Below, piece after piece: positions 2,543 to 60,680 of a stretch of DNA of 64,000 bases (the first letter of the stretch is position 1; every line of letters starts with the position of its first letter). The translations under genes and the position numbers were made by a program. Location of the stretch: positions 1 through 64,000 of the IMG/VR virus record IMGVR_UViG_3300001041_000017; one strand, given 5' to 3'. Under the pieces are notes generated by a model. That model saw only the letters and a list, made by a program, of their open reading frames with translations, made no database searches and was not told the DNA's origin. Source of the stretch: a virus.

Positions 2543-2582
2543 AAGGGAAATACCATAACTGGTTAGATATAATATAGGTAAG
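2543..2582 (+). promoter_or_regulatory. Phage-type promoter, copy 1
   Basis: AAGGGAAA-N15-GATATAATATAGGTAAG; the motif recurs at 3943, 54775 and 60637. Confidence 0.65.
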
Positions 2583-2618
2583 GGGTTAATTTAGTAGAGA
2601 GAGAGGGGGTGGGTTAGA

Positions 2619-2861
2619 GTAGGTAAAAAGAAGATATTACAGGATATAATAAACTTCTTTGAATTAGAGGAAGGGTTTGACAAGAATGAAATTATTAATG
2701 AAATACTTCACGGAATGAAAGAACTTAAAGGTTACGAGTCCGATGAAATAAGTCTAGAATGGGACGGAGATAACCTTATGGTTTTAAATGATTTCGTTGA
2801 AGAATTTTACCGGAAACTAATCGAAGGGATATGTAATGTCTTAAAGAGTTTTCAGAAATAA
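2619..2861 (+). CDS. Hypothetical acidic protein, not in ORF track; probable non-canonical start (GTA 2619 or ATA 2634)
   Basis: Open frame VGKKKILQDIINFFELEEGFD...NVLKSFQK after the promoter and a GGGGGTG SD; first ATG only at 2715. Confidence 0.5.
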   Translation, partial: VGKKKILQDIINFFELEEGFDKNEIINEILHGMKELKGYESDEISLEWDGDNLMVLNDFVEEFYRKLIEGICNVLKSFQK

Positions 2862-2889
2862 ATAATATAAATAGAAGGAGAGTGTTAGA

Positions 2890-3378
2890 ATGGGTGAAGT
2901 CACAATTAAGACTGGAGAAGACACCAGAATATGCTTATTGGTGGATGAAAATTGTCCGGATACCTCTTTGAAGTTTGAACAGCTATCCGATAACACAGTT
3001 AAGATCGAGAAACTGCCGAGTTTTCAGGAAAGTGAATTGGAAGAGTTTGACGAAGAACACGAATCACTTCCGGTAATCGTAGCCCTGTATGGAGATAGGT
3101 TGAAGAGTGTTTCTTTCGATATGGAAGACGATAGTCTAACCTTCACTACAATGAAAAGGGCTGCCGATGATAAGAATTATTCTAGCAGGAATATTTTCCT
3201 TGAAACTATGAATAACCCTGAAGGTAATCATTACGTCCAGACAGTTTATTTTGTGGAGGATTTTTCTGATAAGATCTCTGAAGATCTGGACCATCTGGAT
3301 CGGGCTATGGAAATAGGAGAAGATTTGGTTAATAATCTGAGTAAAAAACAAAAGAAAGAATTATCTTTGGTAAAATAA
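2890..3378 (+). CDS. Hypothetical acidic protein
   Basis: ORF with AAGGAG RBS. Confidence 0.75.
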   Translation: MGEVTIKTGEDTRICLLVDENCPDTSLKFEQLSDNTVKIEKLPSFQESELEEFDEEHESLPVIVALYGDRLKSVSFDMEDDSLTFTTMKRAADDKNYSSRNIFLETMNNPEGNHYVQTVYFVEDFSDKISEDLDHLDRAMEIGEDLVNNLSKKQKKELSLVK

Positions 3379-3420
3379 TTAGGTATACCTATTATTTTGA
3401 TTAAGAAAGGGGGTTCTTGA

Positions 3421-3891
3421 ATGGATCAGACCGTATCAGAAGAACAAACCTTAAAAGGTACTATAGATTCTGAGTGGCTGGCTACAGAAATAGCCGTAAT
3501 GATATACTCTTCTAGTCGGAAAGAGATTTTCGATGTTCTGGAGTGTATTTATGAAAAAGAACGAGACCCTAGGCTTTCTGCTAATAAGAAATTAGTGAGC
3601 AATATTCTTGATAAAACCTGCAAGAATATCAGTAAACTAATTGCCGATGTTTTGGAGAATTGGGAAGTGAAAGTTGAAGTAGGGGGAGAAATTTCTCCAG
3701 AAGAAACACTTCAAGCTATTAGGGAATACAACAATGTCAGGGGAATGATAGGATTTCCTCCGATACTACGCCCAGAAGTTTTTATTAGTCGTATTTCTGA
3801 AGAAACCAATATCTCTCCTGCTATTGTGAAACAGATTCTTGATGCCGAAACAGAATTAATTATTGAAAGAGTTAGTCCTAAAAAATTATAA
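3421..3891 (+). CDS. Hypothetical protein with HU-like helical segment at C-terminus
   Basis: ORF with GAAAGGGGG RBS; FISRISEETNISPAIVKQILDA resembles HU helices 1-2. Confidence 0.6.
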   Translation: MDQTVSEEQTLKGTIDSEWLATEIAVMIYSSSRKEIFDVLECIYEKERDPRLSANKKLVSNILDKTCKNISKLIADVLENWEVKVEVGGEISPEETLQAIREYNNVRGMIGFPPILRPEVFISRISEETNISPAIVKQILDAETELIIERVSPKKL

Positions 3892-3898
3892 CGGAAAG

Positions 3899-3937
3899 AA
3901 AACACCAGGATTTTATTATTCTGGTGTTTTTATTTTT
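3899..3937 (+). terminator. Intrinsic terminator
   Basis: AAAACACCAG...CTGGTGTTTT plus T tract. Confidence 0.75.
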
Positions 3938-3942
3938 ATCAT

Positions 3943-3983
3943 AAGGGAAAAACTGAAAATGTCTTGATATAATAAAGATAAGG
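3943..3983 (+). promoter_or_regulatory. Phage-type promoter, copy 2
   Basis: AAGGGAAA-N15-GATATAATAAAGATAAGG immediately after a terminator. Confidence 0.65.
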
Positions 3984-4007
3984 ACAGTTTTAAGGAGGTT
4001 TATTGTA

Positions 4008-4202: not shown

Positions 4203-4216
4203 ATAATTATTAAGAG

Positions 4217-4666
4217 GTGATTAGTATGAGTAAGTGTAGAATATGTGGTGAGATGGAATATCAAAACGGTATGTGTCTAAAATGTTTCATCATTGACAGG
4301 GATGTAAATATAGCTAATATTGAAAACTGCAAAAAGCAGTTAGAAGAATTATACGGTCAAAAAGAGAAAGAATTGCAATTTAAAGCAGAATATATGTGTA
4401 GGCCTTTTCTGGATGGGAAACCTGTAGACTTTGATTATGAATCTTCTAAATCAGATTCTTTACCATTAGACTATCCAATTCTCCCTAAAAAAATAGTATC
4501 CAAAGTAATATTAAATAATCCCAGAAAAATATTTGTTTACTCTGGTAAGGTTTCGGGATTGTTGAAACGGTTAGAGGAATTAAGATTTTCCTTTGAAAAG
4601 AATATATTTTCAACAATCGAAAATCAAATGTCTATTGATTTTATGAGAGCAGGTTTGTATAAATGA
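4217..4666 (+). CDS. Hypothetical protein with N-terminal CxxC...CxxC
   Basis: CRICG...MCLKC; RBS GAGGTG suggests start at 4226. Confidence 0.65.
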   Translation: MISMSKCRICGEMEYQNGMCLKCFIIDRDVNIANIENCKKQLEELYGQKEKELQFKAEYMCRPFLDGKPVDFDYESSKSDSLPLDYPILPKKIVSKVILNNPRKIFVYSGKVSGLLKRLEELRFSFEKNIFSTIENQMSIDFMRAGLYK

Positions 4667-5196
4667 ACATTAGAATAGCCGGACCTATAGTTCAAGATTC
4701 TATAGTTGATGGACCGGGGATAAGACATACTATTTTTACTCAAGGATGTCATTGGAATTGTCCAGGATGTCATAATCCTGAATCTCATAGTCTTAGTGGT
4801 GGAAAGATTTTAAAAGTAGATGATTTATATATGGAATTGAAAGAAATACTTAGACCATCAATTCATAGAGGGATAACTTTTTCCGGTGGAGATCCTTTTC
4901 TCTGGCCGTTAGAATTAAGTTATCTTGCTGAGAAAATAAAAACTCTTGGAAACTATGATATTATAGTTTACACTGGTTATAGTATGGAAGAATTAAAGCC
5001 TTTGAAGAAATGGATAAAGTTTTTAGAATTGATTGATTTGTTAGTAACAGATAGATTTCTTTTAGAACAAAAAGATTTATCGACTCCATTCCGGGGAAGT
5101 AGAAATCAAAGGATTTGGAAAAAGATTCTTAGAAATAATGGAATGATGTCTTTTGAACAAATTTCTGAAAAAGATATTTTGGGAGGTAAGATATGA
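4663..5196 (+). CDS. nrdG: Anaerobic ribonucleotide reductase activating protein (radical SAM)
   Basis: DSIVDGPGIR, FTQGCHWNCPGCHNP (CxxxCxxC), GITFSGGDP, FRGSRNQR. Confidence 0.92.
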   Translation: MNIRIAGPIVQDSIVDGPGIRHTIFTQGCHWNCPGCHNPESHSLSGGKILKVDDLYMELKEILRPSIHRGITFSGGDPFLWPLELSYLAEKIKTLGNYDIIVYTGYSMEELKPLKKWIKFLELIDLLVTDRFLLEQKDLSTPFRGSRNQRIWKKILRNNGMMSFEQISEKDILGGKI

Positions 5197-5393: not shown

Positions 5394-5954
5394 ATAAATA
5401 TTATAGATTTTGATGTCCCATATCATATTGATTTAGTAGAAATCAGAAGGATATGTTCTGAAATACAAAACACAATTTGGGGACCAGATATAGATACTCC
5501 TATTTATATTATAGGAGTTAAACATAAAAAGTTCTTCTTTGAAAATGATAAGTATACTAAAGGATTAAAATATCCTGGGGATAAGTCATTCCGTGGAACT
5601 TGTTATCCTGTAGAAAATGAAATATTTGTTTATGCAGATAAATATGAAACAACAGAAAGTATCTTGTGGCTTATTTTTCACGAATTAACCCATATGGTTC
5701 TACGGAAAAATAAAATAACTTATTATTACATGATTTATAAAACTTTTCATTATTCTAGAGAATTGGGTTATCCGGATCTTCAATCGTATTACAATGATCC
5801 AAGAACTACTCTAAATGATGAAATACATGAAAAAGATCCAGAGGAAATATTCTGCAATTCTTCGGCATCTATTATGTTTAAAGATTGGGTATATCCTTCT
5901 GGAATTCAATATGATAGATTTTGGTGGAGGGCTAGGAATGAAAAGGATTTATAG
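5394..5954 (+). CDS. HExxH zinc-metallopeptidase-like protein; probable ATA start at 5394 (track shows only 5664-5954)
   Basis: AAGGAGG 8 nt before ATA 5394; open frame to 5954; IFHELTH plus downstream PEEIFCN. Confidence 0.65.
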   Translation: MNIIDFDVPYHIDLVEIRRICSEIQNTIWGPDIDTPIYIIGVKHKKFFFENDKYTKGLKYPGDKSFRGTCYPVENEIFVYADKYETTESILWLIFHELTHMVLRKNKITYYYMIYKTFHYSRELGYPDLQSYYNDPRTTLNDEIHEKDPEEIFCNSSASIMFKDWVYPSGIQYDRFWWRARNEKDL

Positions 5955-6328: not shown

Positions 6329-6335
6329 CCAAATC

Positions 6336-6368
6336 AAACGACTAAGAATTTACTTAGTCGTTTTTTTT
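6336..6368 (+). terminator. Intrinsic terminator closing the accessory island
   Basis: AAACGACTAAG-AATTTA-CTTAGTCGTTT plus T run. Confidence 0.85.
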
Positions 6369-9930: not shown

Positions 9931-9931
9931 T

Positions 9932-10289: not shown

Positions 10290-10706
10290 TTGAATTACAT
10301 TCTACTTTTAAACAATAATCCAACAGTAGGGGTAGAAGATGGGGATAATGTTTCTAGCGGAGATAGGCTTAATCCGGTACTATCAGATCCTTTAGATACT
10401 TCTTTTAACGAAGAGAGTTTACCAATAAAATTAGCTATAAGATGTATTTTTGGTTACGAAACTTCTAATAATGTCAAAATAACTCCTTTTGGAGAAAATG
10501 AAGATAGATGGAGTTTGGCATTAGATGATAACGAACAGCCAGGAATATTTCTAAGTTATGGTGACTCTTTAGAAATAAATGAAGTTATCAAGGATAAAAA
10601 TTATGTATTCTGGGTTAAAGACAGAACGATCTCTGGAGAATTACCTGTTAACGACAAAACAGTTTCTTTAAAAGTCGAAACAAAGATCTCCTCTAATCTC
10701 TTATAA
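10290..10706 (+). CDS. Virion structural protein (putative)
   Basis: AAAGGAG RBS; beta-rich; located in head module. Confidence 0.6.
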   Translation: MNYILLLNNNPTVGVEDGDNVSSGDRLNPVLSDPLDTSFNEESLPIKLAIRCIFGYETSNNVKITPFGENEDRWSLALDDNEQPGIFLSYGDSLEINEVIKDKNYVFWVKDRTISGELPVNDKTVSLKVETKISSNLL

Positions 10707-11442: not shown

Positions 11443-11445
11443 TTT

Positions 11446-11483
11446 AAAAAAGAGGAGATGCTTTTATAGGTCTCCTCTTTTTT
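11446..11483 (+). terminator. Intrinsic terminator
   Basis: AAAAAAGAGGAGA...TCTCCTCTTTTTT. Confidence 0.8.
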
Positions 11484-11520
11484 ATTATGTAATTTTAATA
11501 TAAAGATTGGAGTTGAGAAT

Positions 11521-16641: not shown

Positions 16642-16666
16642 ACTTCATAAAATCCAAAAACTACAG

Positions 16667-16699
16667 AGGGGCTAAATGTTAAAGTTTAGCCCCTTTTTT
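16667..16699 (+). terminator. Terminator of the capsid operon
   Basis: AGGGGCTAAA...TTTAGCCCCT plus TTTTT. Confidence 0.8.
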
Positions 16700-19849: not shown

Positions 19850-19886
19850 AAGGAATCGGAATAGAGATATTCTGGTTCCTTTTTTT
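19850..19886 (+). terminator. Terminator after the tail tube gene
   Basis: AAGGAATCGGAATA-GAGA-TATTCTGGTTCCTT plus T tract. Confidence 0.75.
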
Positions 19887-33227: not shown

Positions 33228-34694
33228 ATGCCTTGGATAGATGAGAAAATGATCGAAGAATCTAAAATTCAAATTGGGTTTCAAGAATTATTGGAATCTG
33301 AAGGATGGACTTTAGAATCGCATTTCAAGAAAGTTGTTTTTGGAGCGAATTTTATAAACCCAATTTCTCCTTTACAGAGTAATTTTCCTATAGAATTTCA
33401 TATTGCAGAGCATTTTATTTTTTCACCACAAAAACCAGAAGGTGTAGAAAGTCCTGATATTTACTTCGGTTTAGCTTCTTATGGATATTTTGAAATGTTT
33501 TATGGATCTATTCCCGTAGATATAGTACCAATATTAGATACCGAAGAAATTCCAACACCTGAAAATGGTATAGAAATCAAAGATAAAACAGGTTACAAAT
33601 TGCTTGGTGAGTGGGTTACTTCCAAATTCCCTAACTACAGAAGAAATTCTACTATCTATACTTATATGACAGAAAAGATTCCAGATATCACAGACGGAGA
33701 AGACGTAGTTATGGCATGGGATGAGGGTATATTGGGTGATTTTAAGAAAGCTTCTTTGGATATAGAAATTAAAAAGACTGGTTTTTTGAAATTTAGTGCC
33801 AGTCCTGTTTTTAAAATTTTTGTTGCAAAACCAGAATGTATGCAATCTCCCATAGTTCCTATAAATCTACGAACACCAGATTTAGAAGTAAAGAATACAA
33901 ACTATAACGAAGGTTTTTTAGTAAGCACGAATAACTTATGGTCAGATAGTCTTTTAAGATTATCTGGACATTTAGATGAAAATTCTTTATTTTTTATTTT
34001 ACAAGCCGACAATTCCGGCAATTTTGAAAATAATCTAGTTCCCTCAATACCTCTATATTGGGGTAAAATAGAGTCTCTTTCTGAAACAGATAAATATTCA
34101 GATGTAATAATAACCGGAAGTGCCTTAGAATCAAAAGAATCTTTTATAGACTATGATAGTTCCGATCCATTTATTTCCCCAGAAGATTCTTCTATAATGC
34201 CAATACTTAAGAATTATGGTTCTCTTTGTGGAAATGGAATTGATAATATAATGATTCATAGATCTAAATATGGTTCTAGGTATCAAGCAGGATATCTTAG
34301 TTGGAATGCCCCACCTAATAGTATGCCTCCAGAAAGATCTAAAATAATATCGGGACCTTCAGGATCTTCCGTTTTGGATTATCCTAGAGCGTATCTGGAT
34401 TCTTTGATGAATTATAAATTTAATCCTTCGGCTTATAGTAATAAAATTCATAGTTCTAGGGCTTACGTCGTTCATCCGGAAGAGGGGGTTCGGGGATTTC
34501 TCCCAAACATAATACTTTTCCCTGGAATGTCGATGATTAATTCAGATAAACTAAAAATAAGGAAAGCAAACTGTCCTAATAAATTCGATCTTTATAGGTA
34601 TTTTTCTATTGGATCAATATCCCCTTTTACAAAAAGACCGGGAACAGTTTATAGGCCGGCAGGTATCGGGTTTTACGAAAAGGAGATGGAATAA
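33228..34694 (+). CDS. Tail appendage paralogue 3
   Basis: MQSPIVP, GNGIDN, FNPSAYS, VHPEEGVRG, SPFTKRPGT. Confidence 0.7.
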   Translation: MPWIDEKMIEESKIQIGFQELLESEGWTLESHFKKVVFGANFINPISPLQSNFPIEFHIAEHFIFSPQKPEGVESPDIYFGLASYGYFEMFYGSIPVDIVPILDTEEIPTPENGIEIKDKTGYKLLGEWVTSKFPNYRRNSTIYTYMTEKIPDITDGEDVVMAWDEGILGDFKKASLDIEIKKTGFLKFSASPVFKIFVAKPECMQSPIVPINLRTPDLEVKNTNYNEGFLVSTNNLWSDSLLRLSGHLDENSLFFILQADNSGNFENNLVPSIPLYWGKIESLSETDKYSDVIITGSALESKESFIDYDSSDPFISPEDSSIMPILKNYGSLCGNGIDNIMIHRSKYGSRYQAGYLSWNAPPNSMPPERSKIISGPSGSSVLDYPRAYLDSLMNYKFNPSAYSNKIHSSRAYVVHPEEGVRGFLPNIILFPGMSMINSDKLKIRKANCPNKFDLYRYFSIGSISPFTKRPGTVYRPAGIGFYEKEME

Positions 34695-41013: not shown

Positions 41014-41060
41014 AATAAAGCGGTGGTTTGGCTTAATAGCCGGATCTCCGCTTTATTTTT
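41014..41060 (+). terminator. Intrinsic terminator
   Basis: AATAAAGCGG...CCGCTTTATT plus TTT. Confidence 0.75.
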
Positions 41061-45894: not shown

Positions 45895-48189
45895 ATGGCT
45901 ATATATGAATCTTTATCAACAGCAGGAATAAGGATTAAAGAAAGTCATTTATCAGAAAATTCTCAGGCAGAAATTAGAAACGTCACTACTATGGACGTTT
46001 CTTTTTCTGTTCCTTTTGGATTAGATTCAAATACAAAAGGGTCTACTGGATTCATAAAAGAAAGACTAGAAACAATCTCCAAAGCTTTACTTGATATGAC
46101 CAATCATAAAACTCATTCATCTTCTTTTATTTCCTACAAAAATAAATTTCCTAGTTGGGCAAGAATCGTAGGAATGACGGAAATGGATCTAAATTATAAC
46201 TTGATCCAATTTCCTGTTTATAAAATTAATAGTTATATAACAAAAGATGCTTTCGTAAGACAATCAAGGCCTAGAAGTAATTACGGATACTATGAAAATA
46301 TGTCTTTGGGACAATCTCTTGATGGAGAATATGTTGTCTTACTACAAGCTGACGTATCTCAGATTTTAGATTTAGATTTAGAGAGAGAATCTTTAGAGAT
46401 AAGGAAAGCACATCTCTTTTTATACTTTCCAATGTTTGATAGCTATTTAGAAAAACCAGAAGTTGAAGTTTATGAAATAGATAGAGACTGGCAAGAAAAT
46501 AGTGTTACTTGGGCTGAAAGTTTAGCTTTCAACTTAACCTATGTCTTCAACTTCAACATAGTATCTCAGGTTAATAGGGTTAATATTTTAGACTATCTAA
46601 AAGATCTGAAAAGTAGAGGAAAGACAGTAGTAAATATTTTATTAAAAACAAAAGTAAATAAAACTTTTTCAATATCAGCTAAAGAAACAGAAGATCTTAT
46701 TATTTCTCCAAAAATAGAATTTGAGTTTAGAGATTTCTTGGAACCTATTTTTTATGGTTCAAAAAATAAAGTGGGAACATCGGTGATAAGGAGGAAGGAT
46801 AAACTTGATTTAGAATATTGCACATCAAGAATAATTTCAGAATATCAGAGAGATTCAGAAGATATTTCTGGAACAGCATTACTAAAAGAATTGAGAGGAG
46901 ATTCAGATCTTTCTTCTCAGATAAGTCTATCAAATTACGATGGTTCTACGGTTGTTTCTATGGCCGGAATCAGGCTATCAAATAAGATTTGCACAGTAAA
47001 TATAGTAGTCTCTTCAAGAATACCTTCTGGGGCTATTATAACGTCTAAAACAAATTACAATATGAATTCCTTTGCCGGAATTAGAGGTTCTAATAAAATT
47101 TCTACAGCTAAATTGAAAAGCTCTAATAGTATTCATGGGGCAGCCTTTATAAGAGAAAGAGAAAAGGATGAAATAATTTCAGGAATAAAAATAGTAGGAC
47201 AATTAAATCAAAAAATTTCTACAGCTAAATTTAGATATTTCTCTGGAATGATTTCAGATGCAAGAATCAGAGTAAAAACTAATTCTGACGAAACATCAAA
47301 TTTGGTTGTTAGGAGATCTTCTAAGCAAGACACTCTAAGTATGGCAAAAATAATTTATATTGAAAATATGAATAGCGAAGCCGTTATAAGGGCTATAAAA
47401 AACTATGATTTTAATGGGAAAGGTTTTATTTATGCTGAAGTCCTTAATTCAATAAATTCTAATGCAATCATTAGACGTAAGGATTTTAAAGACATAACTT
47501 CATCCTCTTCTCTTAAAGTAATAAGTAATAAAGAATCAAATGGTTTTATTAGAATTTCAGAAACAAAAAACGAAAAAAGTTCAGCAATTATTCGGAGAGA
47601 AGAACAAAAAGATATAATTTCTGAGTCTATATTGAAGCAAATTTTAGAAACAAATTCAACAGCAGAAATAAGAGGTTTTAATTATCATAATGAATTTAGT
47701 TCTGCTGAAATAAGAATCGAAGAAAGAAAAGATTTAATTTCAGAAACCACTTTAAAAATATTCCTGGATGGAAATTCTACAGCCAAATTAGTTTATCCGG
47801 CTGACGAAGATTATTTTGGAAATTCAATTATTAGAAGAAAAGATTCTTCTGAAGAAGAATGTATAGCTACAATTTCAGTACAAAAGTTTTCTGATAGAGC
47901 AGGTAAAGTAAAAATAACAATCATAAACCAATTTAATTCTAATGATATTCCAGCACAAGCATTTATAAGAGTAGATACTTTTAATAGCGATATAATTTCT
48001 GGTATGAAAATAAGACAAGAGGATTTATTGGATACTGTTTCAAATGTTATTATAAGATCTCAAGAGTCTAGAGAAATCAAGGGATCTGTTATAATTATGG
48101 CGAAAAGACACTGGATACCGAATAGGCAAGGTTACGACATTTTTAGTTTTGAAGACAGAAAACTGCCTAGACAATATAAATATAAATAG
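45895..48189 (+). CDS. DNRLRE-like carbohydrate-binding protein with repetitive beta-strand shaft
   Basis: KDAFVRQSRPRSNYG, DWQENSVTW; repeats such as SSAIIRREEQKDIIS. Confidence 0.7.
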   Translation: MAIYESLSTAGIRIKESHLSENSQAEIRNVTTMDVSFSVPFGLDSNTKGSTGFIKERLETISKALLDMTNHKTHSSSFISYKNKFPSWARIVGMTEMDLNYNLIQFPVYKINSYITKDAFVRQSRPRSNYGYYENMSLGQSLDGEYVVLLQADVSQILDLDLERESLEIRKAHLFLYFPMFDSYLEKPEVEVYEIDRDWQENSVTWAESLAFNLTYVFNFNIVSQVNRVNILDYLKDLKSRGKTVVNILLKTKVNKTFSISAKETEDLIISPKIEFEFRDFLEPIFYGSKNKVGTSVIRRKDKLDLEYCTSRIISEYQRDSEDISGTALLKELRGDSDLSSQISLSNYDGSTVVSMAGIRLSNKICTVNIVVSSRIPSGAIITSKTNYNMNSFAGIRGSNKISTAKLKSSNSIHGAAFIREREKDEIISGIKIVGQLNQKISTAKFRYFSGMISDARIRVKTNSDETSNLVVRRSSKQDTLSMAKIIYIENMNSEAVIRAIKNYDFNGKGFIYAEVLNSINSNAIIRRKDFKDITSSSSLKVISNKESNGFIRISETKNEKSSAIIRREEQKDIISESILKQILETNSTAEIRGFNYHNEFSSAEIRIEERKDLISETTLKIFLDGNSTAKLVYPADEDYFGNSIIRRKDSSEEECIATISVQKFSDRAGKVKITIINQFNSNDIPAQAFIRVDTFNSDIISGMKIRQEDLLDTVSNVIIRSQESREIKGSVIIMAKRHWIPNRQGYDIFSFEDRKLPRQYKYK

Positions 48190-48923: not shown

Positions 48924-49012
48924 AGTTGATTTTCTTTTAGAGTTACTATATATTTATATTTAAGATTCAAACCAATACAGAATTTCTTATTATGGAGATT
49001 AGAAATTCTGGG

Positions 49013-49045
49013 GAGAACAGTTTTGCACAACTGTTCTCTTTTTTT
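49013..49045 (+). terminator. Terminator at end of the late region
   Basis: GAGAACAGTT-TTGCAC-AACTGTTCTC plus T7. Confidence 0.85.
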
Positions 49046-49091
49046 ATTTGTAAAAGTATTTAGATATAATAATAGTTAGGAATATTTAAAA

Positions 49092-49138: not shown

Positions 49139-50584
49139 GTGATTTATTTGATAGAGTTAATCATTAAGGATAAAATCAAAATACCCTTAAAAAGTCTTTC
49201 AAAGACCTTAATCAAAGAATTGAAAGATATGTTTACTATGAAGAACCCTACATATTACAAAATGAGAGCTGCCGGATTTAGACCTACTGAAAATCAGTAC
49301 ATAAGAACTTTTGAGATTGATAAAAAATTCATATCTTTACCCAGAGGCTCCTTCCAGGAAATACTTAATATTTTTGAAAGAGAAAAGTTGAAGTTTAAAA
49401 TAATTGATCAGCGAATAGTCAAACCTTTTAAGTTTAAGTCAACTATTAAACTAAAAGAGTATCAACTAGAACCAGTTAACGAGGCTGTAAAAGCTGAACA
49501 AGGAATCATTAAGGGTGTTTGTTCAAGCGGAAAAACAATAATGTTAATTCAAACTATGGTTCAACTTGGTCAGAGAACTTTGATTATTGTTCCGACTAAA
49601 AAATTACAGGATCAATGGGTTAAGAATTTGAAGGGTTTAATATCAACTTCTGAATCAACGACAACGCCCCTGATAGCCTCTTACGGAGGAGGCAAGAAGG
49701 AGATAGGAATAGTTACTGTTGGAATCATAAATAGTGTCTCTAAAGACGTTAAAAAACTATCCGATATTTTTGGAACTGTTATTGGTGATGAGATACATCG
49801 AGCAGCAGCTCCAATGTTTCTAAACATAGTAAATCATATGAAAGCAAAATATAGGATAGGTGGTACAGCTACTCCCTACAGAAAAGATGGAAAGCAATTC
49901 TTAATGTTTCAAACATTTGGACCGGTTGTAGCCTCAGTAGAAGATTCAGACCTGGAGGAAGCCGGAGATGCAATGGAGGTAGAAATAAGAGTAATCCCAA
50001 CAGATTTTTATTACGATCCCAAAGAAATAGGTGAAGAATACGAAAGAATAGATTATAATGAATTTCTGAATCAGATTGTTAACGATGAAGAAAGAAACCA
50101 ATTAATTTTTAGATTTCTAAAGAAAGAATATGATAAAGGAAATTACTCTATTCTTCTGGCTGATAGATTAGAATTCTGCCATAATTGGAAAGAAGAATTG
50201 AAGAAACAAGGAATTAAAGCTAAACTAGCAATCGGAGGTCTTGAAGAAGAATATAAATTAGCACAGAGATTGATTGAGAAGGGTAAACTAAGGGTTCTAA
50301 TTGGCACGGCAGTAGCAGACGAGGGGTTAGACATAAGTCAGCTTAATAGGGGCTTTATTTGTACCCCTACAGTTAACAATAAGAGAAGGATAGTTCAACA
50401 GGCCGGACGTATGAAGCGGAGACATCCAGGTAAAGTTGATGCTATATGTTATTACGTCTGGGACAAGAATGTTTTTGATGATTCAGTTCTGGATAAATTA
50501 AAAAGTTATTTCAAGACTGTTAAAGTTTTTTCTTTAGGCAAGTGGTATTCGGTGAGAAATTATAAAAAGATTTTGATATATTAA
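49139..50584 (+). CDS. SF2 DEAD/DEAH-box helicase (UvsW/ResIII-like)
   Basis: LKEYQ, SSGKT, GDEIH, GTATPYRKDG, EGLDI, QQAGRMKR. Confidence 0.9.
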   Translation: MIYLIELIIKDKIKIPLKSLSKTLIKELKDMFTMKNPTYYKMRAAGFRPTENQYIRTFEIDKKFISLPRGSFQEILNIFEREKLKFKIIDQRIVKPFKFKSTIKLKEYQLEPVNEAVKAEQGIIKGVCSSGKTIMLIQTMVQLGQRTLIIVPTKKLQDQWVKNLKGLISTSESTTTPLIASYGGGKKEIGIVTVGIINSVSKDVKKLSDIFGTVIGDEIHRAAAPMFLNIVNHMKAKYRIGGTATPYRKDGKQFLMFQTFGPVVASVEDSDLEEAGDAMEVEIRVIPTDFYYDPKEIGEEYERIDYNEFLNQIVNDEERNQLIFRFLKKEYDKGNYSILLADRLEFCHNWKEELKKQGIKAKLAIGGLEEEYKLAQRLIEKGKLRVLIGTAVADEGLDISQLNRGFICTPTVNNKRRIVQQAGRMKRRHPGKVDAICYYVWDKNVFDDSVLDKLKSYFKTVKVFSLGKWYSVRNYKKILIY

Positions 50585-54339: not shown

Positions 54340-54368
54340 TTGACAAGGTATTTTGTATGATTTATAAT
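54340..54368 (+). promoter_or_regulatory. Consensus sigmaA promoter
   Basis: TTGACA-17-TATAAT, perfect match. Confidence 0.85.
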
Positions 54369-54398
54369 GTATAAAAATCATATAGGCGGTGAAAATTT

Positions 54399-54644
54399 AT
54401 GGAAAAATCCTGCGAGGAAAAGTTGTTTCTACTTCAGGAAAAACACAATAAAGTATTAAGAAGTCTTCAGGATCTTACGGAGTGTCTGAAACTGGCTGTT
54501 AAAGAAAGGGATTATCTAATAAATCAAAGGGAAGAAATTAATAGAATGTTAGATCTTTTAGGCGTTCCGAGAGAATTGAACGGAGATCCTCTTACTATTC
54601 CTAATCGTTTAAAAGAAGTATCTCCTCTTTATAAAGAAAAGTAA
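54399..54644 (+). CDS. Small coiled-coil protein (moron-like)
   Basis: Own sigmaA promoter and a downstream hairpin. Confidence 0.7.
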   Translation: MEKSCEEKLFLLQEKHNKVLRSLQDLTECLKLAVKERDYLINQREEINRMLDLLGVPRELNGDPLTIPNRLKEVSPLYKEK

Positions 54645-54711: not shown

Positions 54712-54764
54712 TAAAAGTACGCCGTGTAGAAAAGGTTTAACCTTTTCTACACGGCGTACTTTTA
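54712..54764. repeat. Perfect 53-bp palindrome (26-bp arms, 1-nt centre)
   Basis: TAAAAGTACGCCGTGTAGAAAAGGTT-T-AACCTTTTCTACACGGCGTACTTTTA. Confidence 0.95.
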
Positions 54765-54774: not shown

Positions 54775-54815
54775 AAGGGAAATTACCTTAACTGATTAGA
54801 TATATTAAAGATAAG
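54775..54815 (+). promoter_or_regulatory. Phage-type promoter, copy 3
   Basis: AAGGGAAA-N16-GATATATTAAAGATAAG; spacer nearly identical to copy 1. Confidence 0.65.
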
Positions 54816-56055: not shown

Positions 56056-56067
56056 GATTGGTGAAAT

Positions 56068-56169: not shown

Positions 56170-56203
56170 ATAACTTGACTCTCTTTTTTTATTGTGATAA
56201 TAT
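56149..56203 (+). promoter_or_regulatory. Terminator overlapping the sigmaA-like integrase promoter
   Basis: AAAAAGAGAGTTAAGTT...AACTTGACTCTCTTTTT hairpin; TTGACT-17-TAATAT with TG extension. Confidence 0.65.
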
Positions 56204-56212
56204 CAAAATATC

Positions 56213-57832
56213 TTGATATTATTTACATTAGGGGGAATTTATTTGAAAGAAAATCATATACCTCCTCATTTGAGAATGGCAAATTATAAAGAGCAAAAAA
56301 GAAATTCTGACAAAGAATCAGACAAGAGTTTAATTAAGCTTCAGGGATATGTCAGGATTTCTACAAAAAAAGAAGCTCAAAAAACATCTCTAGAATTTCA
56401 GGAAAAGCTATTAAAAGAATGGTGTGAAGTTCATGGATATCAATATGCTGGAACGGTTTTTGATATAAAATCTGGGGCATATATGAATTCAAGGACCGGT
56501 ATTCAAGATCTTTTAGAGATGGCTAAGAATGAAGAAATTCACGGATTAATAACCAAGGAGGTTTCAAGAACCTCCAGAGATATTCAAGACATAATTCAGT
56601 TAAAAAGAAAACTCTCTGATTATGGAGCCTTCTTAATTTCAATAAAGGAGGGTTACGACAGTAGATCGGATAACGATGAATTTTTGTTAACTATTTATGC
56701 AGCAATAGCCCAGAAAGAAAGAACCACTATTGGGAGTAGGTTGAAGACTACGCAACTAATAAAGGCCAGGAATGGTAGACCGAATAATAGGCCAGCTTTC
56801 GGATACCGAATATCAGAAGATAAAACCAGATATGAACCCTGCCCAATACATACTCCAATCTATAAAGAGATAGTAGATATGTTTCTGTCTGGGAAGGGTA
56901 AGAATGCTATTTGTAGAGAGTTGAATGGAAGAGGGTTAAAAACATACCTTGGATCTAAATTCTCCTCTCTAACGATAGATACAATCCTTAGAAACCCGGT
57001 CTACATCGGAACGTATATGTATAACACTTCATATTGTTTCCGTGATGCAGAGGGTAAAAAACAGAGGGTTATTAGACCTCAGAACGAATGGATAGTCAGA
57101 GAAAATAATCACGAATCCTTAATAGAAAACTTAACCTGGGAATCTATACAAGAGTCATTGGATAAGCGTAAAATAGATAAGAAATATACTGTTGATAAAA
57201 AATATTTACTAACCGGTAATTTAATTTGTTCAAGATGCGGATCTAAAATTTATGGAAAGATTCATTCTAGAACTAGGAAAGATGGATCGCGTCCTGTTTA
57301 TTATTTATGTTATAATGAGTTCGGAAACTGTCATTTACCGTATACCAGAAAAGAAATAATTGAGGATATGGTAAAAGAACATTTAACAAAAATAATTTAC
57401 GATCCGGAAATTCTGAGAGATGAAATAAATAATCAGAAAAATATTATGGACGTAAATAATTCAGATCTTGTCCAAAGAAGAGAAATTATTCAGAAGGAAT
57501 TATCCGATATCGAAAAAGCTATGAATAAACAATTTGTGGCCTACGAAAAGGATATAATTGATGTAGATACTTATGGTAAAAGAATTAAAGAATTAAAACA
57601 AAACAAACTAATTTTAGAGGAAGAATTATCTGTCCTGGAGAAGAAGTTAAGGAAAACTGATCGGATGGATAATAAGACAGAAATACTTTTCAGAGAAATA
57701 AAACAACTGTTGGATTTAGAAAAAAATCCTGATGTTGCTGAATTAGCCCTAGGTTTATTTGTAGATAAGATATATGTAGACTATAAGAAAGACAAATTAA
57801 TTTTGAAGTATAAATATACTTTTCAAGAGTGA
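56213..57832 (+). CDS. Large serine recombinase (integrase); start possibly TTG 56243
   Basis: GYVRIST, SRTSR, recombinase domain ILRNPVYIG, zinc ribbon CSRCG...YYLC, coiled coil. Confidence 0.95.
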   Translation: MILFTLGGIYLKENHIPPHLRMANYKEQKRNSDKESDKSLIKLQGYVRISTKKEAQKTSLEFQEKLLKEWCEVHGYQYAGTVFDIKSGAYMNSRTGIQDLLEMAKNEEIHGLITKEVSRTSRDIQDIIQLKRKLSDYGAFLISIKEGYDSRSDNDEFLLTIYAAIAQKERTTIGSRLKTTQLIKARNGRPNNRPAFGYRISEDKTRYEPCPIHTPIYKEIVDMFLSGKGKNAICRELNGRGLKTYLGSKFSSLTIDTILRNPVYIGTYMYNTSYCFRDAEGKKQRVIRPQNEWIVRENNHESLIENLTWESIQESLDKRKIDKKYTVDKKYLLTGNLICSRCGSKIYGKIHSRTRKDGSRPVYYLCYNEFGNCHLPYTRKEIIEDMVKEHLTKIIYDPEILRDEINNQKNIMDVNNSDLVQRREIIQKELSDIEKAMNKQFVAYEKDIIDVDTYGKRIKELKQNKLILEEELSVLEKKLRKTDRMDNKTEILFREIKQLLDLEKNPDVAELALGLFVDKIYVDYKKDKLILKYKYTFQE

Positions 57833-57839
57833 AATATAC

Positions 57840-57887: not shown

Positions 57888-57896
57888 ACAAAAACC

Positions 57897-58316
57897 CTAA
57901 CAATGATTAATGTTAGGGTTTAATTTTTCCTGTAATTCTATTATGCTGTTGATGATTTTTTCGAGAGTGGAGACAGGGATTTTTTTATCATATGCTTTTT
58001 CGATTAAGAGAATATACGGAAGGAAATCCGTATGAGAAAGTATGTCTGGACTTAATTTATTATTGAGAATTCCTGATTCGTAAACATCATTTAAAGTAAA
58101 GTCGAACAAAAAATAAAACGGAGACACATTAAGTATTTCACTAAGAGTTGATATTAATTCTTTAGAAATATTTTTACCTCTTTTATCTTTAGAAAGAACA
58201 CTAATATAAGCTGCGGTCACATTTACCTTTTCTGCTAACTCCTTTTGTTTCAAACTCCTATTCTCCATAATTAATTTTAACTTTTCCCCAAATGTCAGAA
58301 CATCAAATCTCTTCAT
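57897..58316 (-). CDS. XRE-family HTH repressor (CI-like)
   Basis: FGEKLKLIMENRSLKQKELAEKVNVTAAYIS; GGAGGTG RBS; the only clear minus-strand gene. Confidence 0.88.
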   Translation of the reverse strand: MKRFDVLTFGEKLKLIMENRSLKQKELAEKVNVTAAYISVLSKDKRGKNISKELISTLSEILNVSPFYFLFDFTLNDVYESGILNNKLSPDILSHTDFLPYILLIEKAYDKKIPVSTLEKIINSIIELQEKLNPNINHC

Positions 58317-58519
58317 ATTATCACCTCCAAATTAAATGAATTATAGGCTATAAAACTTAAATTTGATTTATTGTTGTTATTGTACCCTAATATCAAAACA
58401 ATTTCTGTGACCGTCGTCACATTTTTATATATTTTTTTAACTTTTTAATTATATAACAAAAAGTTTATTCAAACAACAAAAATTCTCTTGTCTTTTTTCG
58501 ACAAATTAACTGAATGTTG

Positions 58520-58548
58520 TTGACATTAAGGTTATTATGAAATATAAT
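58520..58548 (+). promoter_or_regulatory. Consensus sigmaA promoter driving the phage sigma gene
   Basis: TTGACA-17-TATAAT, perfect match. Confidence 0.85.
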
Positions 58549-58657
58549 TCATGGAAATAACATAAAGTTAATTGATCGGCATATCATAATATAAACCCTA
58601 CATAAATAATAACGGTTAGTTAACAAAACCTTTATATTTAGAGAGGAGAGATATTTT

Positions 58658-59551
58658 GTGAAGAAGGGTCAATGCCAACAATGCCAAATATGTAGTTATT
58701 CCTGTGAGGACAAGGATTTACTTCTGAAACATCTAGAAGAATACCACGGATTAAGAGTAGGTTTTGTTTTAGAGAATGAGACAGGTGTTTTAGAGAACGA
58801 AATGTATCTAATAAGAGAAGGTCTCAGTAGTTCTATAGAGAAAGTTATAAGAAAGATGAGACCTTACTTAATTAAGGCTGTAAACCAGAAGTATTCTAAT
58901 TATCCCTCGAATCTTATGAATAAAGATGATTTTATCTCTATTGCAGAGATTTCTATTTGGGAGAGCTTGAATTGTCAGATAGAAAATCCAGAAATAAAGG
59001 ATAAATGTTATAAATATATTTGTCCGGTATGTGGTAAAGCGTTTACTAGCATGATTAGATACGAAAAACATTTGCTGGTTAAGCATGGTAAACAAATCTC
59101 CCCTAAAGTATCTATTGGAGAATTTGTTAACTTCAGATTAGGGGTACGACTCCAAAATGCCGTTAGAGATGAATACGCTCAAAAACGGCAAGGGAATCAT
59201 TTTTATAGTCGGGACGATGAAATGTCCCAATCATTATATTTAGACTATGCTTCTGAGAGAGACGAAGATTCTGATTTTAAGGAACTTGACTCTGGTATAA
59301 ACATAGAGGACGAAGTTTCTGAAAAGTTTTTGATTGAGGGAATAATCAAGAGACTTGGATCTTCTAATATAGATAAGGCAATTATAATTCAGCTATTTCG
59401 TGGTATAAAAGTAAGAAAAATTGCCACTAAAATATATAACGCTTATGGAGAGCATTCGTCTATTAAATCAGCTACTACAACCGTCAAAAATATGATAAAA
59501 GTTCTACTGGAGAACGGAAATGTATTTGAAGACGGTTTAAAAATATCATAA
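58658..59551 (+). CDS. Sigma70-family (SigH-like) factor with two C2H2 zinc fingers
   Basis: Region 2-like KMRPYLIKAV...KDDFISIAEISIWES / SIGEFV..RL..RLQNAVRDEYAQKR; region 4-like DKAIIIQLFRGIKVRKIA; two Cx2Cx12Hx4H motifs. Confidence 0.72.
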   Translation: MKKGQCQQCQICSYSCEDKDLLLKHLEEYHGLRVGFVLENETGVLENEMYLIREGLSSSIEKVIRKMRPYLIKAVNQKYSNYPSNLMNKDDFISIAEISIWESLNCQIENPEIKDKCYKYICPVCGKAFTSMIRYEKHLLVKHGKQISPKVSIGEFVNFRLGVRLQNAVRDEYAQKRQGNHFYSRDDEMSQSLYLDYASERDEDSDFKELDSGINIEDEVSEKFLIEGIIKRLGSSNIDKAIIIQLFRGIKVRKIATKIYNAYGEHSSIKSATTTVKNMIKVLLENGNVFEDGLKIS

Positions 59552-59556
59552 ATAAT

Positions 59557-59600
59557 TTAAGAAGAAACCTTTTACAATAAGAGGTTTCTTCTTAATTTTT
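59557..59600 (+). terminator. Intrinsic terminator
   Basis: TTAAGAAGAAACCT...AGGTTTCTTCTTAA plus TTTTT. Confidence 0.8.
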
Positions 59601-59706
59601 GATAAAATTATAAAAATTTTTCTACTAATCGTAAAAATAAAAAAGCAATTGATATATTAAAGATAGAGGGTAATTAAACACAAAATACAAAAGGTAAAGG
59701 GAGGAA

Positions 59707-60543
59707 TTGTTTTTGGCTAAGAAAACAACTGAAAAAAAGGACGATAAGAAAACTTCCAAGACTAAATCCAAATTTAAACTGAAGGATTTACTAGCCGGGG
59801 CTGAAGCTCTTGAGCTTGATACAGATGATATCGAGGATGATGCAAAGGCTTTAGAAGCAGCCATTGATGATGCTGTTTCAGATTTAGACGAGGATGATAC
59901 CTGTGAGTGTGGTGAGTGCGGTAAAGACATTCCTGACGTAGACACTTGCCCCTACTGCGGTAAAGTCTTCGAAACAGACGACTCCGATGAAGACGAAGAA
60001 TCGGATGAAGATAACGACGAAGAAGAGGAAGAAGAACCTGCCACTATTAAGACTGTGGGCAAAGGCAAGAATAAAACCTTTAGCTGCTCTAAGTGCGGTA
60101 AGGCTGTAAAAGAGGATTCCAAGTCTTGCCCTAATAAGAAGTGTAAAGCTGTTTTTGAGACCGAAGAAGAGGATGAGGACGAGGAAGAAGAAACGTCCAA
60201 AAAGTCCTCTAAGAAGGATGATAAAAAAGCTGGCAAGGCTTCCGATAAAAAATCGGGCAAGGGTAAGAAAGATCCCGATCCGGAAGAAGAGGAAGATGAG
60301 GACGACGAAGAGGATGAAGAAGAAGTCGTCTATATAACTACTTCCGGTAAGGGTAAGAAGAAGAAATTTATCTGCTCAGGCTGCGGTGAAGAAGTAAAAG
60401 AAACCGCTAAAAAGTGCAAGGGTTGTAAGGCCGTATTTGGCGAAGAACCCGAAGAAGAGGAAGACGAGGAAGAAGAAACTCCTCCTCCGAAGAAGTCTTC
60501 CAAGAAGGACGATAAGAAGTCGTCCAAAAAGGGTAAGAAGTAA
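59707..60543 (+). CDS. Low-complexity acidic/Lys-rich protein with three zinc ribbons
   Basis: Three CxxC...CxxC-type units separated by poly-D/E and KKSSKKDDKK blocks; GGGAGG RBS. Confidence 0.8.
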   Translation: MFLAKKTTEKKDDKKTSKTKSKFKLKDLLAGAEALELDTDDIEDDAKALEAAIDDAVSDLDEDDTCECGECGKDIPDVDTCPYCGKVFETDDSDEDEESDEDNDEEEEEEPATIKTVGKGKNKTFSCSKCGKAVKEDSKSCPNKKCKAVFETEEEDEDEEEETSKKSSKKDDKKAGKASDKKSGKGKKDPDPEEEEDEDDEEDEEEVVYITTSGKGKKKKFICSGCGEEVKETAKKCKGCKAVFGEEPEEEEDEEEETPPPKKSSKKDDKKSSKKGKK

Positions 60544-60589
60544 ACTTTTAATAACCTGTCCCGGCACTTCCATCTGTTCCGGTATAGAG

Positions 60590-60620
60590 AAATCGCCTTT
60601 AATATCAAGGCGATTTTTTT
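60590..60620 (+). terminator. Intrinsic terminator
   Basis: AAATCGCCTT...AAGGCGATTT plus TTTT. Confidence 0.8.
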
Positions 60621-60636
60621 ATTTTATTTTTCAAAC

Positions 60637-60680
60637 AAGGGAAAAAACGAATTTATTTATATATAATATAGATAAGGAGG
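60637..60680 (+). promoter_or_regulatory. Phage-type promoter, copy 4
   Basis: AAGGGAAA-N15-TATATAATATAGATAAGG. Confidence 0.65.

Follow-up and report, generated by a model that had tools for sequence, protein, structure and literature searches.

The source genome is that of an uncultured groundwater phage, represented by a record of 80,057 bp that is 67% complete (full genome, about 120 kb); the first 64,000 nucleotides of this record are the window analyzed here. An initial annotation had described promoter-like sites of the layout GGGAAA-N17-TATAWT-AWAGATAAG, with strong copies at 2543, 3943, 54775, and 60637. We found all four at these positions, between genes and on the plus strand, with the fuller layout AAGGGAAA-N17/18-TATAWT-AWAGATAAG and spacers of the claimed lengths (17, 17, 18, and 17 nt, the longer one at 54775). 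Counted across the lineage, the family has six strong copies or more. Its members and partial members are as follows.

2543 to 2583, plus strand: strong copy 1; AAGGGAAA, 17-nt spacer, TATAAT (2568 to 2573), ATAGGTAAG
3943 to 3983, plus strand: strong copy 2; AAGGGAAA, 17-nt spacer, TGA-TATAAT (3968 to 3973), AAAGATAAG
54775 to 54815, plus strand: strong copy 3; AAGGGAAA, 18-nt spacer, TATATT (54801 to 54806), AAAGATAAG
60637 to 60677, plus strand: strong copy 4; AAGGGAAA, 17-nt spacer, TATAAT (60662 to 60667), ATAGATAAG
64950, outside the window: strong copy 5; AAAGTAAA-17-TATAAT-AAAGATAAG
About 1010 on strain contig G006: strong copy 6
59628 to 59667, plus strand: weak copy; ATCGTAAA, 17-nt spacer, TGA-TATATT, AAAGATAGA; 15.0 bits
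50552 to 50591, plus strand: doubtful weak copy; GAGAAA-17-TGA-TATATT-AAAAGAAGG; below the 14-bit threshold
49062 to 49080, plus strand: partial copy without the GGGAAA box; GATATAAT (-10 at 49065 to 49070), then AATAGTTAGG
78984: partial copy with the -10 and downstream block only

Bit scores come from a position-weight scan (threshold, 14 bits) that was trained on five strong sites and is hence circular for those five. The weak copies had been reported as GAGAAA-17-TATATT at 50554 and CGTAAA-17-TATATT at 59630. Both carry these letters; the site beginning at 59628 passes the scan and is plausible, whereas the one beginning at 50552 is doubtful.

Motif frequency and conservation

In the window, GGGAAA-N16-19-TATAWT had four matches, all on the plus strand, against 0.49 expected (standard deviation, 0.70), and none of 100 shuffles gave four or more. 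Across the whole record there were still four matches on the plus strand and none on the minus strand. Among 8-mers shared by four or more of the 33 intergenic stretches (3,816 nt), AAGGGAAA was the most enriched (21-fold). Each of its four plus-strand copies in the record is a family site, and its two minus-strand copies (26481 and 29458) are both intragenic. Exact matches to TATAWTAWAGATAAG lie at 3968, 54801, 60662, and 64975 (the last beyond the window end), all on the plus strand of the record, with none on the minus strand; allowing up to two mismatches gave 14 matches versus 4.45 expected, a number reached in 0 of 100 shuffles.

The box and the -10 element are 17 to 18 bp apart in all nine aligned copies, four of which carry a TGn extension. 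GGGAAA agrees with TTGACA at only three of six positions, so the sites fail the sigma-70 scan rule, and the exact hexamer occurs in four copies despite unlike spacers. The copy 2 spacer shows no relation to that of copy 4, and neither is related to the spacers of copies 1 and 3. Identical boxes beside differing spacers suggest selection on the boxes rather than copying. The -10 element precedes the first start codon by 18 to 34 nt at copies 2, 3, 4, and 5 and by 22 nt in a strain's version of copy 1. Each site combines three blocks that are conserved: AAGGGAAA, spanning roughly -38 to -31; 17 to 18 bp downstream, a -10 of the host type (TATAAT or TATATT); and AWAGATAAG over the discriminator and the expected start, with transcription predicted to begin about 7 nt past the -10. 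We consider it very probable that these sites are promoters. The pairing of a normal -10 with a non-TTGACA -35, pointed out in the initial annotation, sets them apart as a class from the two consensus sigmaA promoters described below.

Genomic context and strain variation

Terminators precede three of the four strong copies in the window (3898 to 3931, 54716 to 54760, and 60584 to 60622), in line with the earlier claim that most copies follow one; none was called before the copy at 2543, which lies immediately past the terL stop codon. Copy 2 lies ahead of a small zinc-finger gene (4008) and NrdG (4663 to 5196), and copy 3, after a 20-pair terminator, lies ahead of a 66-amino-acid (aa) open reading frame (ORF) and the primase gene (55039). 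Copy 4, in which ATAGATAAG directly abuts GGAGG, lies ahead of the dUTPase gene, a 123-aa ORF, and DnaE. The weak copy at 59628 sits between a terminator (59557 to 59595) and a zinc-ribbon gene (59707 to 60543). A terminator (49010 to 49041) also precedes the partial copy at 49065, which is followed by a helicase gene (49139 to 50584); the doubtful copy at 50552 falls within the final codons of that gene. Hairpins were seen by eye between the latter copy and the next gene (50759). As proposed, the copies precede accessory or replication genes, and also genes of nucleotide metabolism; the set comprises primase, NrdG, dUTPase-DnaE, and the zinc-ribbon gene. That they never precede structural genes holds for the first downstream gene, but 2543 and 3943 lie between the large terminase gene (908 to 2527) and the portal gene (6428).

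A cassette has been swapped between strains, and copy 1 marks its exact left breakpoint: homology of a strain contig to the window stops 3 nt past this copy and restarts 274 bp on, and the strain's own copy 1 is 90% identical to copy 3 over 41 bp. The spacer of copy 3 is similar to that of copy 1, and the two share letters with the G006 copy. Together with the terminator-promoter pairs at three of four strong copies, these observations speak for a reading as plain sigmaA promoters, for which a perfect -10, A/T-rich upstream DNA, and sometimes TGn would be enough; the shared boxes would then reflect common descent and gene conversion of shuffling terminator-promoter cassettes resembling PeSLs. 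PeSLs are described for T4-like phages as composite motifs of a terminator and an early promoter at the borders of cassettes, where a stem-loop terminator and then a conserved promoter stand between small variable genes (PMC4122927). The breakpoint at copy 1 adds to the likeness, but the promoters in that account are of the host-sigma early type and belong to virulent myoviruses (PMC4122927), and in our phage a single swap was seen and the hairpins are mutually dissimilar. Moreover, AAGGGAAA is identical in copies 2 and 4 despite their unrelated spacers, a hexamer with three of six matches should not stay fixed by drift or by selection through sigmaA alone, and unregulated polymerase and primase promoters would run in the lysogen. 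We therefore regard plain sigmaA promoters as unlikely; the family probably needs a dedicated factor.

Consensus promoters and a candidate repressor

The window also contains the following features.

54340 to 54381, plus strand: perfect TTGACA-17-TATAAT promoter; a palindrome with 7-bp arms (54357 to 54381) covers the -10
57897 to 58316, minus strand: HTH_3 (Cro/CI-type) repressor candidate, by family match
58520 to 58552, plus strand: perfect TTGACA-17-TATAAT promoter; palindrome ATGAAATATAATTCAT (58537 to 58552) covers the -10
58658 to 59551, plus strand: P0001, 297 aa, sigma-like, with two C2H2 fingers; candidate reader of the family

The two perfect promoters, also reported initially, are the sole 12/12 matches in 48 to 64 kb, and none was found in 1 to 20 kb or 60 to 80 kb (56 kb scanned in total). 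Each of the two heads a unit that consists of one gene and ends in a terminator. The first would drive an 81-aa coiled-coil ORF (54399 to 54644), whose product had no family match; the second, divergent from the repressor gene, would drive P0001, whose transcript unit ends at the terminator at 59557 to 59595. Only two ATGAWWT...AWWTCAT palindromes occur in the window, each over the -10 of a perfect promoter, which suggests repressor control of both. The repressor candidate is the only minus-strand gene of the record with a family match and adjoins a serine recombinase gene (56213 to 57832). By this gene content the phage is temperate, and free-running promoters would therefore not be expected at its replication genes.

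Candidate readers of the family

A profile of the 11-member P0001 family matched SigH in the PDB (3mzy; E = 1.6e-5), SigF (1l0o; 0.0029), and another sigma factor (0.0055), with regions 2.2, 2.3-2.4, and 4 aligned in the correct order and the C2H2 finger in the loop that separates region 2.2 from region 2.3. Weak Pfam matches occurred among the family members (Sigma70_r2 in 4 of 11, Sigma70_r4 in 2 of 11, and Sigma70_r4_2 in 1 of 11); the Pfam sigma models matched neither the P0001 protein nor the record in a six-frame search. P0001 would be a very divergent sigma factor, and its region 2.3 lacks the tryptophan pair. By profile likeness, P0001 is plausibly a sigma factor. The initial annotation had also compared the -35 box with that of SigH. 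The SigH consensus has an AGGA-type -35 and a GAAT -10; the family has no AGGA, and its -10 is TATAAT rather than GAAT, so this resemblance is weak.

P0001 is not the only candidate. The lineage also has a 229-aa canonical sigma-70-family protein, P0031, so "the phage sigma" is not unique. Its gene stands on a contig about 3.7 kb upstream of that for the small terminase, which would place it in the part of our genome that the record lacks. P0031 passes the Pfam cutoffs for Sigma70_r4_2 (27.8 bits; cutoff, 25.7) and Sigma70_r2 (24.2; cutoff, 24) and matches SigH 3mzy at 1.7e-8; its contig is 99% identical to positions 1 to 2585 of the window, and two family copies fall within the packaging module. 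As a reader of the family it is nevertheless quite improbable. Its own promoter (TGATATAAT plus AGATAAT) lacks AAGGGAAA, and the protein is absent from the 80 kb of this record. Late regulators usually sit near lysis genes, upstream of terminase genes; P0031 occupies such a place, beside lysis-type genes, but the motif precedes replication genes. Against P0001, in turn, an hhalign comparison of its family with P0031 gave only a 28-column match in region 2.2 (probability, 9.9; E = 0.0032).

A further alternative is that host sigmaA reads the -10 (plus TGn where present) while a nonsigma early phage protein binds AAGGGAAA at the -35 position as an activator, either in class II mode or by sigma appropriation like T4 MotA/AsiA. 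Candidates for this protein are the 81-aa early protein, the zinc-ribbon protein encoded at 59707, and P0001 itself in the role of a zinc-finger/HTH activator. Every copy has an excellent -10 and four of nine have TGn, traits also ascribed to the MotA-dependent middle promoters of T4, which need a stringent -10 and carry TGn in about half of the cases (PMC2988021). A perfect sigmaA hexamer with this TGn frequency would fit sigmaA better than the very divergent P0001. The downstream replication and nucleotide-metabolism genes recall T4 middle genes, and there are two early units, P0001 and the 81-aa protein of AsiA-like size. The geometry differs: the box is 17 to 18 bp from the -10, at a true -35 position, whereas the MotA box is placed 12 ± 1 bp away, centered at -30 (PMC2988021). 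The MotA/AsiA model raised initially thus agrees with our data in its logic but not in its geometry, and the record has no MotA_activ or AsiA match. The 81-aa protein, as noted, matches no family, and P0001 resembles a sigma factor more than a known activator. We judge this arrangement fairly unlikely and retain P0001 as the candidate sigma.

Three promoters (49065, 78984, and that of P0031) have the -10 and the block past it but no box, so the block is not tied to the box, a point against P0001 as reader of the whole element. The third block might alternatively serve another function: AWAGATAAG could be a loading signal for a phage NusG-like protein, allowing polymerase to read through the many terminators of this one-directional genome. 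A protein with a NusG N-terminal domain is encoded at 77674 to 78210, terminator-like hairpins are in excess (19 versus 6.8, 18 versus 10.1, and 16 versus 8.4 expected), and in the structural module the gap between several hairpins and the gene that follows is too short for a promoter. Known NusG paralogues, however, are recruited in the transcribed leader, whereas the block spans roughly -6 to +3; such a role is highly improbable.

Comparison with known systems

The middle and late promoters of SPO1 have non-host -10 elements. In this Bacillus phage the cascade is reported to run from sigmaA (early) through gp28 (middle) to gp33/34 (late) (PMC13401047). Our phage is likewise of the Firmicute type, with host sigmaA promoters leading to its own putative sigma factors and more than one such factor per genome, but SPO1 is virulent and our phage temperate.

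Salmonella phage 7-11 gp47 is described as reading GTAAtg-16-aCTA at 8 promoters and phiEco32 gp36 as reading tAATGTAtA at 6 (PMC8948821). Shared features are a few near-identical promoters per genome that differ from the host consensus, a two-part element where the sigma factor has region 4, and, by hypothesis in our phage, a very divergent phage sigma acting with the host core enzyme (PMC8948821). Those systems are presented as having a non-host -10, late or middle-late genes, virulent phages, and reading shown in vitro; the present family has a perfect host -10, a third conserved block, a temperate phage, and a C2H2 candidate sigma. T4 middle promoters share with it a high-quality host-type -10, a phage box replacing the -35, replication and nucleotide-metabolism genes downstream, and factors made from strong consensus early promoters, but T4 is credited with nearly 60 of them versus 6 to 9 here (PMC2988021).

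Proposed regulatory cascade

The earlier proposal of middle promoters read by the phage sigma stands as far as the distinct promoter class and the plausible sigma nature of P0001 are concerned; its link between motif and P0001 is circumstantial, drawn from genome logic, and a second sigma exists. Among the relatives searched, none combined a P0001 homologue with a motif of this kind, and covariation thus lends the link no support. From the sequence we infer transcriptional activity, dependence on a phage factor, and P0001 as that factor; the whole chain of phage-specific promoters, a dedicated factor, and P0001 as reader is put forward tentatively. Once the repressor is lost, host sigmaA would read the two consensus promoters with a palindrome over the -10, one of which would yield P0001. 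P0001 would then bind the host core RNA polymerase and read the AAGGGAAA box through its region 4, and the family would fire. These promoters would act as a "middle" class, restarting transcription past intrinsic terminators and ahead of replication, nucleotide-metabolism, and accessory cassettes.

A boxed family of predicted promoters on one strand

We searched the window for GGGAAA-N16-19-TATAWT and found four matches, all on the plus strand, against an expectation of 0.49; four matches were reached in none of 100 shuffles. The 8-mer AAGGGAAA, which forms a conserved block at the -35 position (the box), has four plus-strand copies in the 80-kb record, each one a strong promoter site, and was the top enriched 8-mer among those common to at least 4 of 33 intergenic stretches. 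The -10 hexamer plus the block downstream of it, TATAWTAWAGATAAG, has four exact occurrences on the plus strand of the record and none on the minus strand. The fourth exact occurrence, at 64975, lies beyond the window and is part of a fifth strong promoter. Every coordinate that the initial annotation had assigned to the promoter copies was correct. The copies and related sites are as follows.

Boxed promoter copies and related sites
2543, plus strand: strong copy 1
3943, plus strand: strong copy 2
54775, plus strand: strong copy 3
60637, plus strand: strong copy 4
64950, plus strand: strong copy 5, AAAGTAAA-17-TATAAT-AAAGATAAG, 18 nt before the gene at 64999
Extra upstream DNA of strain contig G006: sixth strong copy, GGGAAA-18-TGATATAAT-ATAAATAAG
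59628: weak copy, CGTAAA-17-TATATT
50552: doubtful weak copy, GAGAAA-17-TATATT
49065: partial copy without the box
78984: box-less promoter, TTGATT-18-TATAAT-ACAGATAAT, preceding an HU-like gene

A position-weight scan, for which the five strong sites served as the training set and which is hence circular for them, added only 59628 (15.0 bits) and returned nothing in 10 shuffles. Two weak copies had been proposed: 59628 is plausible, and 50552, which fell under the threshold, is doubted because it falls within the final part of the helicase gene and because, as judged by eye, hairpins come after it. Three blocks stand out in an alignment of nine copies: the box, the -10 hexamer, and a downstream AWAGATAAG. 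The -10 is TATAAT or TATATT in all nine; six copies have a 17-bp spacer and the other three an 18-bp spacer, within the 17 +/- 1 bp of the sigmaA criterion. At the -35 position, GGGAAA agrees with TTGACA at 3/6 bases and AGTAAA and CGTAAA at 2/6, short of the sigmaA criterion of at least 4/6. With three agreements, boxed sites cannot qualify in sigma-70-type scans, three of which gave no excess of ordinary promoter-like sites (70 versus 68.0, 68 versus 79.8, and 78 versus 78.9 expected).

All strong copies are intergenic, and each is oriented toward the next gene. From the end of the -10 to the first start codon there are 18 to 34 nt at copies 2 to 5 and at the strain version of copy 1. A called intrinsic terminator precedes three of the four strong copies in the window, as well as the weak copy at 59628 and the partial copy at 49065. 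The spacer of copy 2 bears no relation to that of copy 4, and neither is related to the spacers of copies 1 and 3. Conserved blocks beside such dissimilar spacers argue for retention of the blocks by selection, as opposed to mere recent duplication. No other over-represented motif was found among intergenic 8-mers or upstream of packaging and structural genes, and the latter regions yielded no common late-promoter motif, only T-runs.

Gene order and two probable early promoters of consensus type

The 80,057-bp record, whose bases 1-64000 make up the window, has a CheckV completeness of 67%. Three IMG/VR contigs (L002, L003, and L004) match it at 99 to 100% from base 1 and extend 7 to 16.5 kb further upstream, a 5'-3' exonuclease open reading frame (ORF) that begins at 79563 runs off the end of the record at base 80057, and a contig of 119,937 bp is listed in the protein cluster of the sigma-like zinc-finger protein P0001. 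The record is therefore a fragment of a phage genome of probably about 120 kb, one third of which is absent; this ruled out our first idea that the record was circularly permuted. The four sequencing runs containing this sequence are all DNA runs, from groundwater metagenomes of one study, with no RNA run among them. G+C content is about 32% in the window. No tRNA was found, and the window had no Rfam match. In the 80-kb record, all genes with a family match except one are on the plus strand. Three minus-strand calls in the greedy ORF list, two of 42 to 54 amino acids (aa) inside the exonuclease ORF (79.6 to 80.0 kb) and one over the dUTPase gene (60631-60933), were taken as miscalls.

Genes of the record in order
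146: small terminase
908: large terminase, then two small accessory blocks
6428: portal, then about 42 kb of virion genes
49139: helicase
50759/51035: replication initiator, with DnaC- and DnaB-like genes
54399: 81-aa ORF
55039: primase
56213: serine recombinase
57897-58316, minus strand: helix-turn-helix (HTH) repressor
58658-59551, plus strand: P0001
59707: zinc-ribbon protein, then dUTPase
61530-64925: DnaE, then RecA-like, MT-A70, and SbcC-like genes
77674: NusG-like protein
79025: HU-like protein

After the NrdG block comes a 421-nt gap in the window (5394-5814), for which the gene list has no ORF of at least 45 aa before the next small genes begin; this gap may be a decayed gene or reflect a miscalled start. 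The virion region carries three tandem paralogues of one structural protein family, phrog_9258 (28882-31158, 31626-33212, and 33228-34694), followed by a related phrog_11431 protein (34695-36692).

The perfect TTGACA promoters reported earlier at 54340 and 58520 were borne out as the only two 12/12 TTGACA-17-TATAAT sites in the 56 kb scanned. Each heads a single terminator-closed gene, the 81-aa ORF and P0001, respectively, and over both -10s lie palindromes with ATGAWWT arms (54357-54381 and 58537-58552). The pattern ATGAWWT...AWWTCAT matches only these two sites in the window; it was written after the sites had been seen, and 10 of 100 shuffles also gave two matches, so only the positions of the palindromes carry weight. 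These palindromes may be operators for the HTH repressor. Taken with the divergent repressor gene, they give 54340 and 58520 the look of a pair of early promoters guarded by a repressor. No palindrome of this kind occurs at the boxed promoters, and AWAGATAAG is absent from both early promoters. We also noted two TTAACA-16-TATAAT matches (11/12), 148 nt apart and inside genes (record positions 70323 and 70471; L001:10323-10350 and 10471-10498). The serine recombinase gene is closely preceded by another palindrome, TAATATCAA-N6-TTGATATTA (56198-56221), and there are single TAATATCAA half-sites at 89 (upstream of the small terminase gene), 58388 (between the repressor and P0001 genes), and 52237 (minus strand).

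As judged from sequence, the boxed copies are a real, strand-specific, and statistically solid family of predicted promoters, distinct from the two consensus early promoters. They are most likely middle promoters requiring a dedicated factor.

Candidate readers of the box

SigH promoters have AGGA in the -35 and GAAT in the -10. The SigH-type promoter suggested in the initial annotation does not fit, as the box AAGGGAAA lacks AGGA and the -10 is TATAWT in every aligned copy. SigD-type promoters read TAAA-N15-GCCGATAT; this reading was rejected because the spacing is 3 nt too short. A phage RNA polymerase was rejected as well, having no match in the proteins scanned (10 large structural-region ORFs compared with PHROGs, plus 20 PHROGs scans and 50 Pfam scans, with 45895-48189 outside the scan). 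Of the large ORFs, those at 20734, 23881, and 36711 had no match of any kind.

The best candidate for the reader is P0001. This 297-aa protein has two C2H2 fingers; of 1.84 billion representative proteins, only about ten are full-length relatives, all of them distant. Used as a profile, the 11-member family matched the solved sigma factors SigH (3mzy; E = 1.6e-5), SigF (1l0o; 0.0029), and 8x6g (0.0055), with region 2.2 aligning before the finger and regions 2.3-2.4 and 4 after it. Weak Pfam matches were found to Sigma70_r2 in 4, Sigma70_r4 in 2, and Sigma70_r4_2 in 1 of the 11 members. P0001 itself matched no Pfam sigma model, those models found nothing in the six reading frames of the record, and an Atlas search gave only a subthreshold lead to a viral Sigma70_r2 cluster. 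We consider it probable that P0001 is a sigma-family protein. The case for linking it to the motif is one of genome logic: P0001 would be made early, a temperate phage needs a switch for its replication genes, the box has the geometry of a true -35, and no other intergenic motif is over-represented. It is improbable that P0001 is a new kind of sigma whose fingers add a third DNA contact, such that the holoenzyme would read a three-part promoter of box, -10, and AWAGATAAG around the start; one finger would then replace the region 1.2 position and the other would sit between regions 2.2 and 2.3.

SigmaA aided by an activator is a live rival to P0001. The perfect host -10 hexamer and a TGn in four of nine copies are the signature of sigmaA-dependent, activator-assisted promoters such as the T4 middle promoters (PMC2988021). 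The MotA/AsiA parallel drawn in the initial annotation holds to this extent, in that a host -10 is here too combined with a phage box in place of the -35; it departs in spacing and, within the record searched, in the proteins. According to the same source, the MotA box of T4 middle promoters lies 12 +/- 1 bp from the -10, centered at -30, whereas the box here ends 17 to 18 bp away. No MotA or AsiA homologue was found in the 80-kb, 67%-complete record (PF09114 and PF09010, no match at E <= 10).

A second phage sigma, P0031, is also a live rival as reader of the box. It is a 229-aa protein encoded on a strain contig (L028, G006:12875-13564) and absent from the 80-kb record; it passes the Pfam Sigma70_r2 and Sigma70_r4_2 cutoffs and matches SigH in the PDB (3mzy; 1.7e-8). 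Its gene has lysis-type genes as neighbors and is situated some 3.7 kb upstream of the small terminase gene, a position that suggests a late regulator. The P0031 promoter consists of a terminator and then TGATATAAT-AGATAAT, with no box.

The downstream block and possible antitermination

AWAGATAAG would cover about -6 to +3. Promoters without the box, at 49065, at 78984, and upstream of P0031, likewise have it after the -10. At copies 4 and 5 it runs directly into the ribosome-binding site, so leaders there would be about 15 to 20 nt. The block could be a preferred start region, a contact for a P0001 finger, or a loading site for the NusG-like protein. A role as repressor operator was rejected, since the stretch between the repressor and P0001 genes does not contain the block.

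The NusG-like protein carries an NGN domain (record 77674-78210; L001:17674-18210). Terminator-like hairpins stud the packaging and virion module (865-886, 6336-6363, 11445-11485, 16665-16696, 19850-19881, and 41020-41060), several of them too close to the next gene to leave space for a promoter. Together with the NusG-like protein, such hairpins suggest phage-directed antitermination. The gene behind the promoter at 78984 encodes an HU/IHF-family DNA-binding protein (record 79025-79486; L001:19025-19486; Bac_DNA_binding, E = 5.5e-16), which recalls TF1, the HU-like protein of SPO1.

Relatives and a recombination joint at copy 1

No close relative was found among 50,697 phage records, either by DNA or with P0001, and a portal-gene search returned only relatives less than 60% identical. 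P0001 and its family members P0003, P0018, and P0012 were not found in IMG/VR, nor was P0001 in GTDB genomes. P0018 was not found in JGI metagenomes; P0012 was, and its locus (L018/L019) is the sole retrievable one with a P0001 homologue. That locus has 46% GC and few intergenic stretches, and no repeated motif was seen by eye. A word-index search with the P0001 family alignment returned P0002 and P0018 only, and five related viral records searched whole, all fragments, held no homologue of the family profile or of P0031. In the fetched loci of 13 related contigs (L005 to L017; terL 44 to 49% identical), the exact downstream block was absent, and GGGAAA-spacer-TATAWT gave a single match, on the minus strand of L016. 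An IMG/VR motif scan returned the strain contigs plus three matches inside unrelated sequence without tblastx likeness to this genome, which we took as chance. A query with the exonuclease for DNA beyond base 80057 gave only a 28%-identical relative.

The strain contigs G006 and G007 are 99% identical to the window up to 2585, 3 nt after copy 1, and homology resumes at 2860. The intervening 274 bp (2586-2859) is replaced in the strain by an unrelated 481 bp (L002:11680-12160). The swapped cassettes encode unrelated ORFs, of 48 aa from its ATG in the window and 150 aa in the strain. In the strain, the spacer of copy 1 is 18 bp long, and a 41-bp stretch of this copy matches copy 3 at 90%. In this one case, the breakpoint behaves like the PeSL terminator-promoter motifs of T4-like phages (PMC4122927). 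The PeSL arrangement, a stem-loop terminator directly upstream of a conserved promoter, is found at the same three strong in-window copies and at 59628 and 49065.

Implications

A private phage promoter set is a known kind of thing; the three-block architecture and the candidate reader are what is particular here. If P0001 reads the family, then a rare sigma-like protein whose region 2 contains a eukaryote-style zinc finger forms a compact, testable pair with its six to nine defined promoters. Such a pair would show whether an inserted finger extends promoter recognition beyond the -35 and -10, and it would be usable in low-GC bacteria as an orthogonal sigma-promoter set. Should the reader instead be sigmaA plus an activator, the family would be a Firmicute-type parallel to sigma appropriation by T4, with a different geometry. 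Either way, the result is a working model of transcription in an uncultured temperate phage of about 120 kb, made up of two early promoters probably guarded by a repressor, a middle class carrying the box, and cassettes bounded by terminators, and an instance of promoter copies as recombination joints outside T4-like phages.
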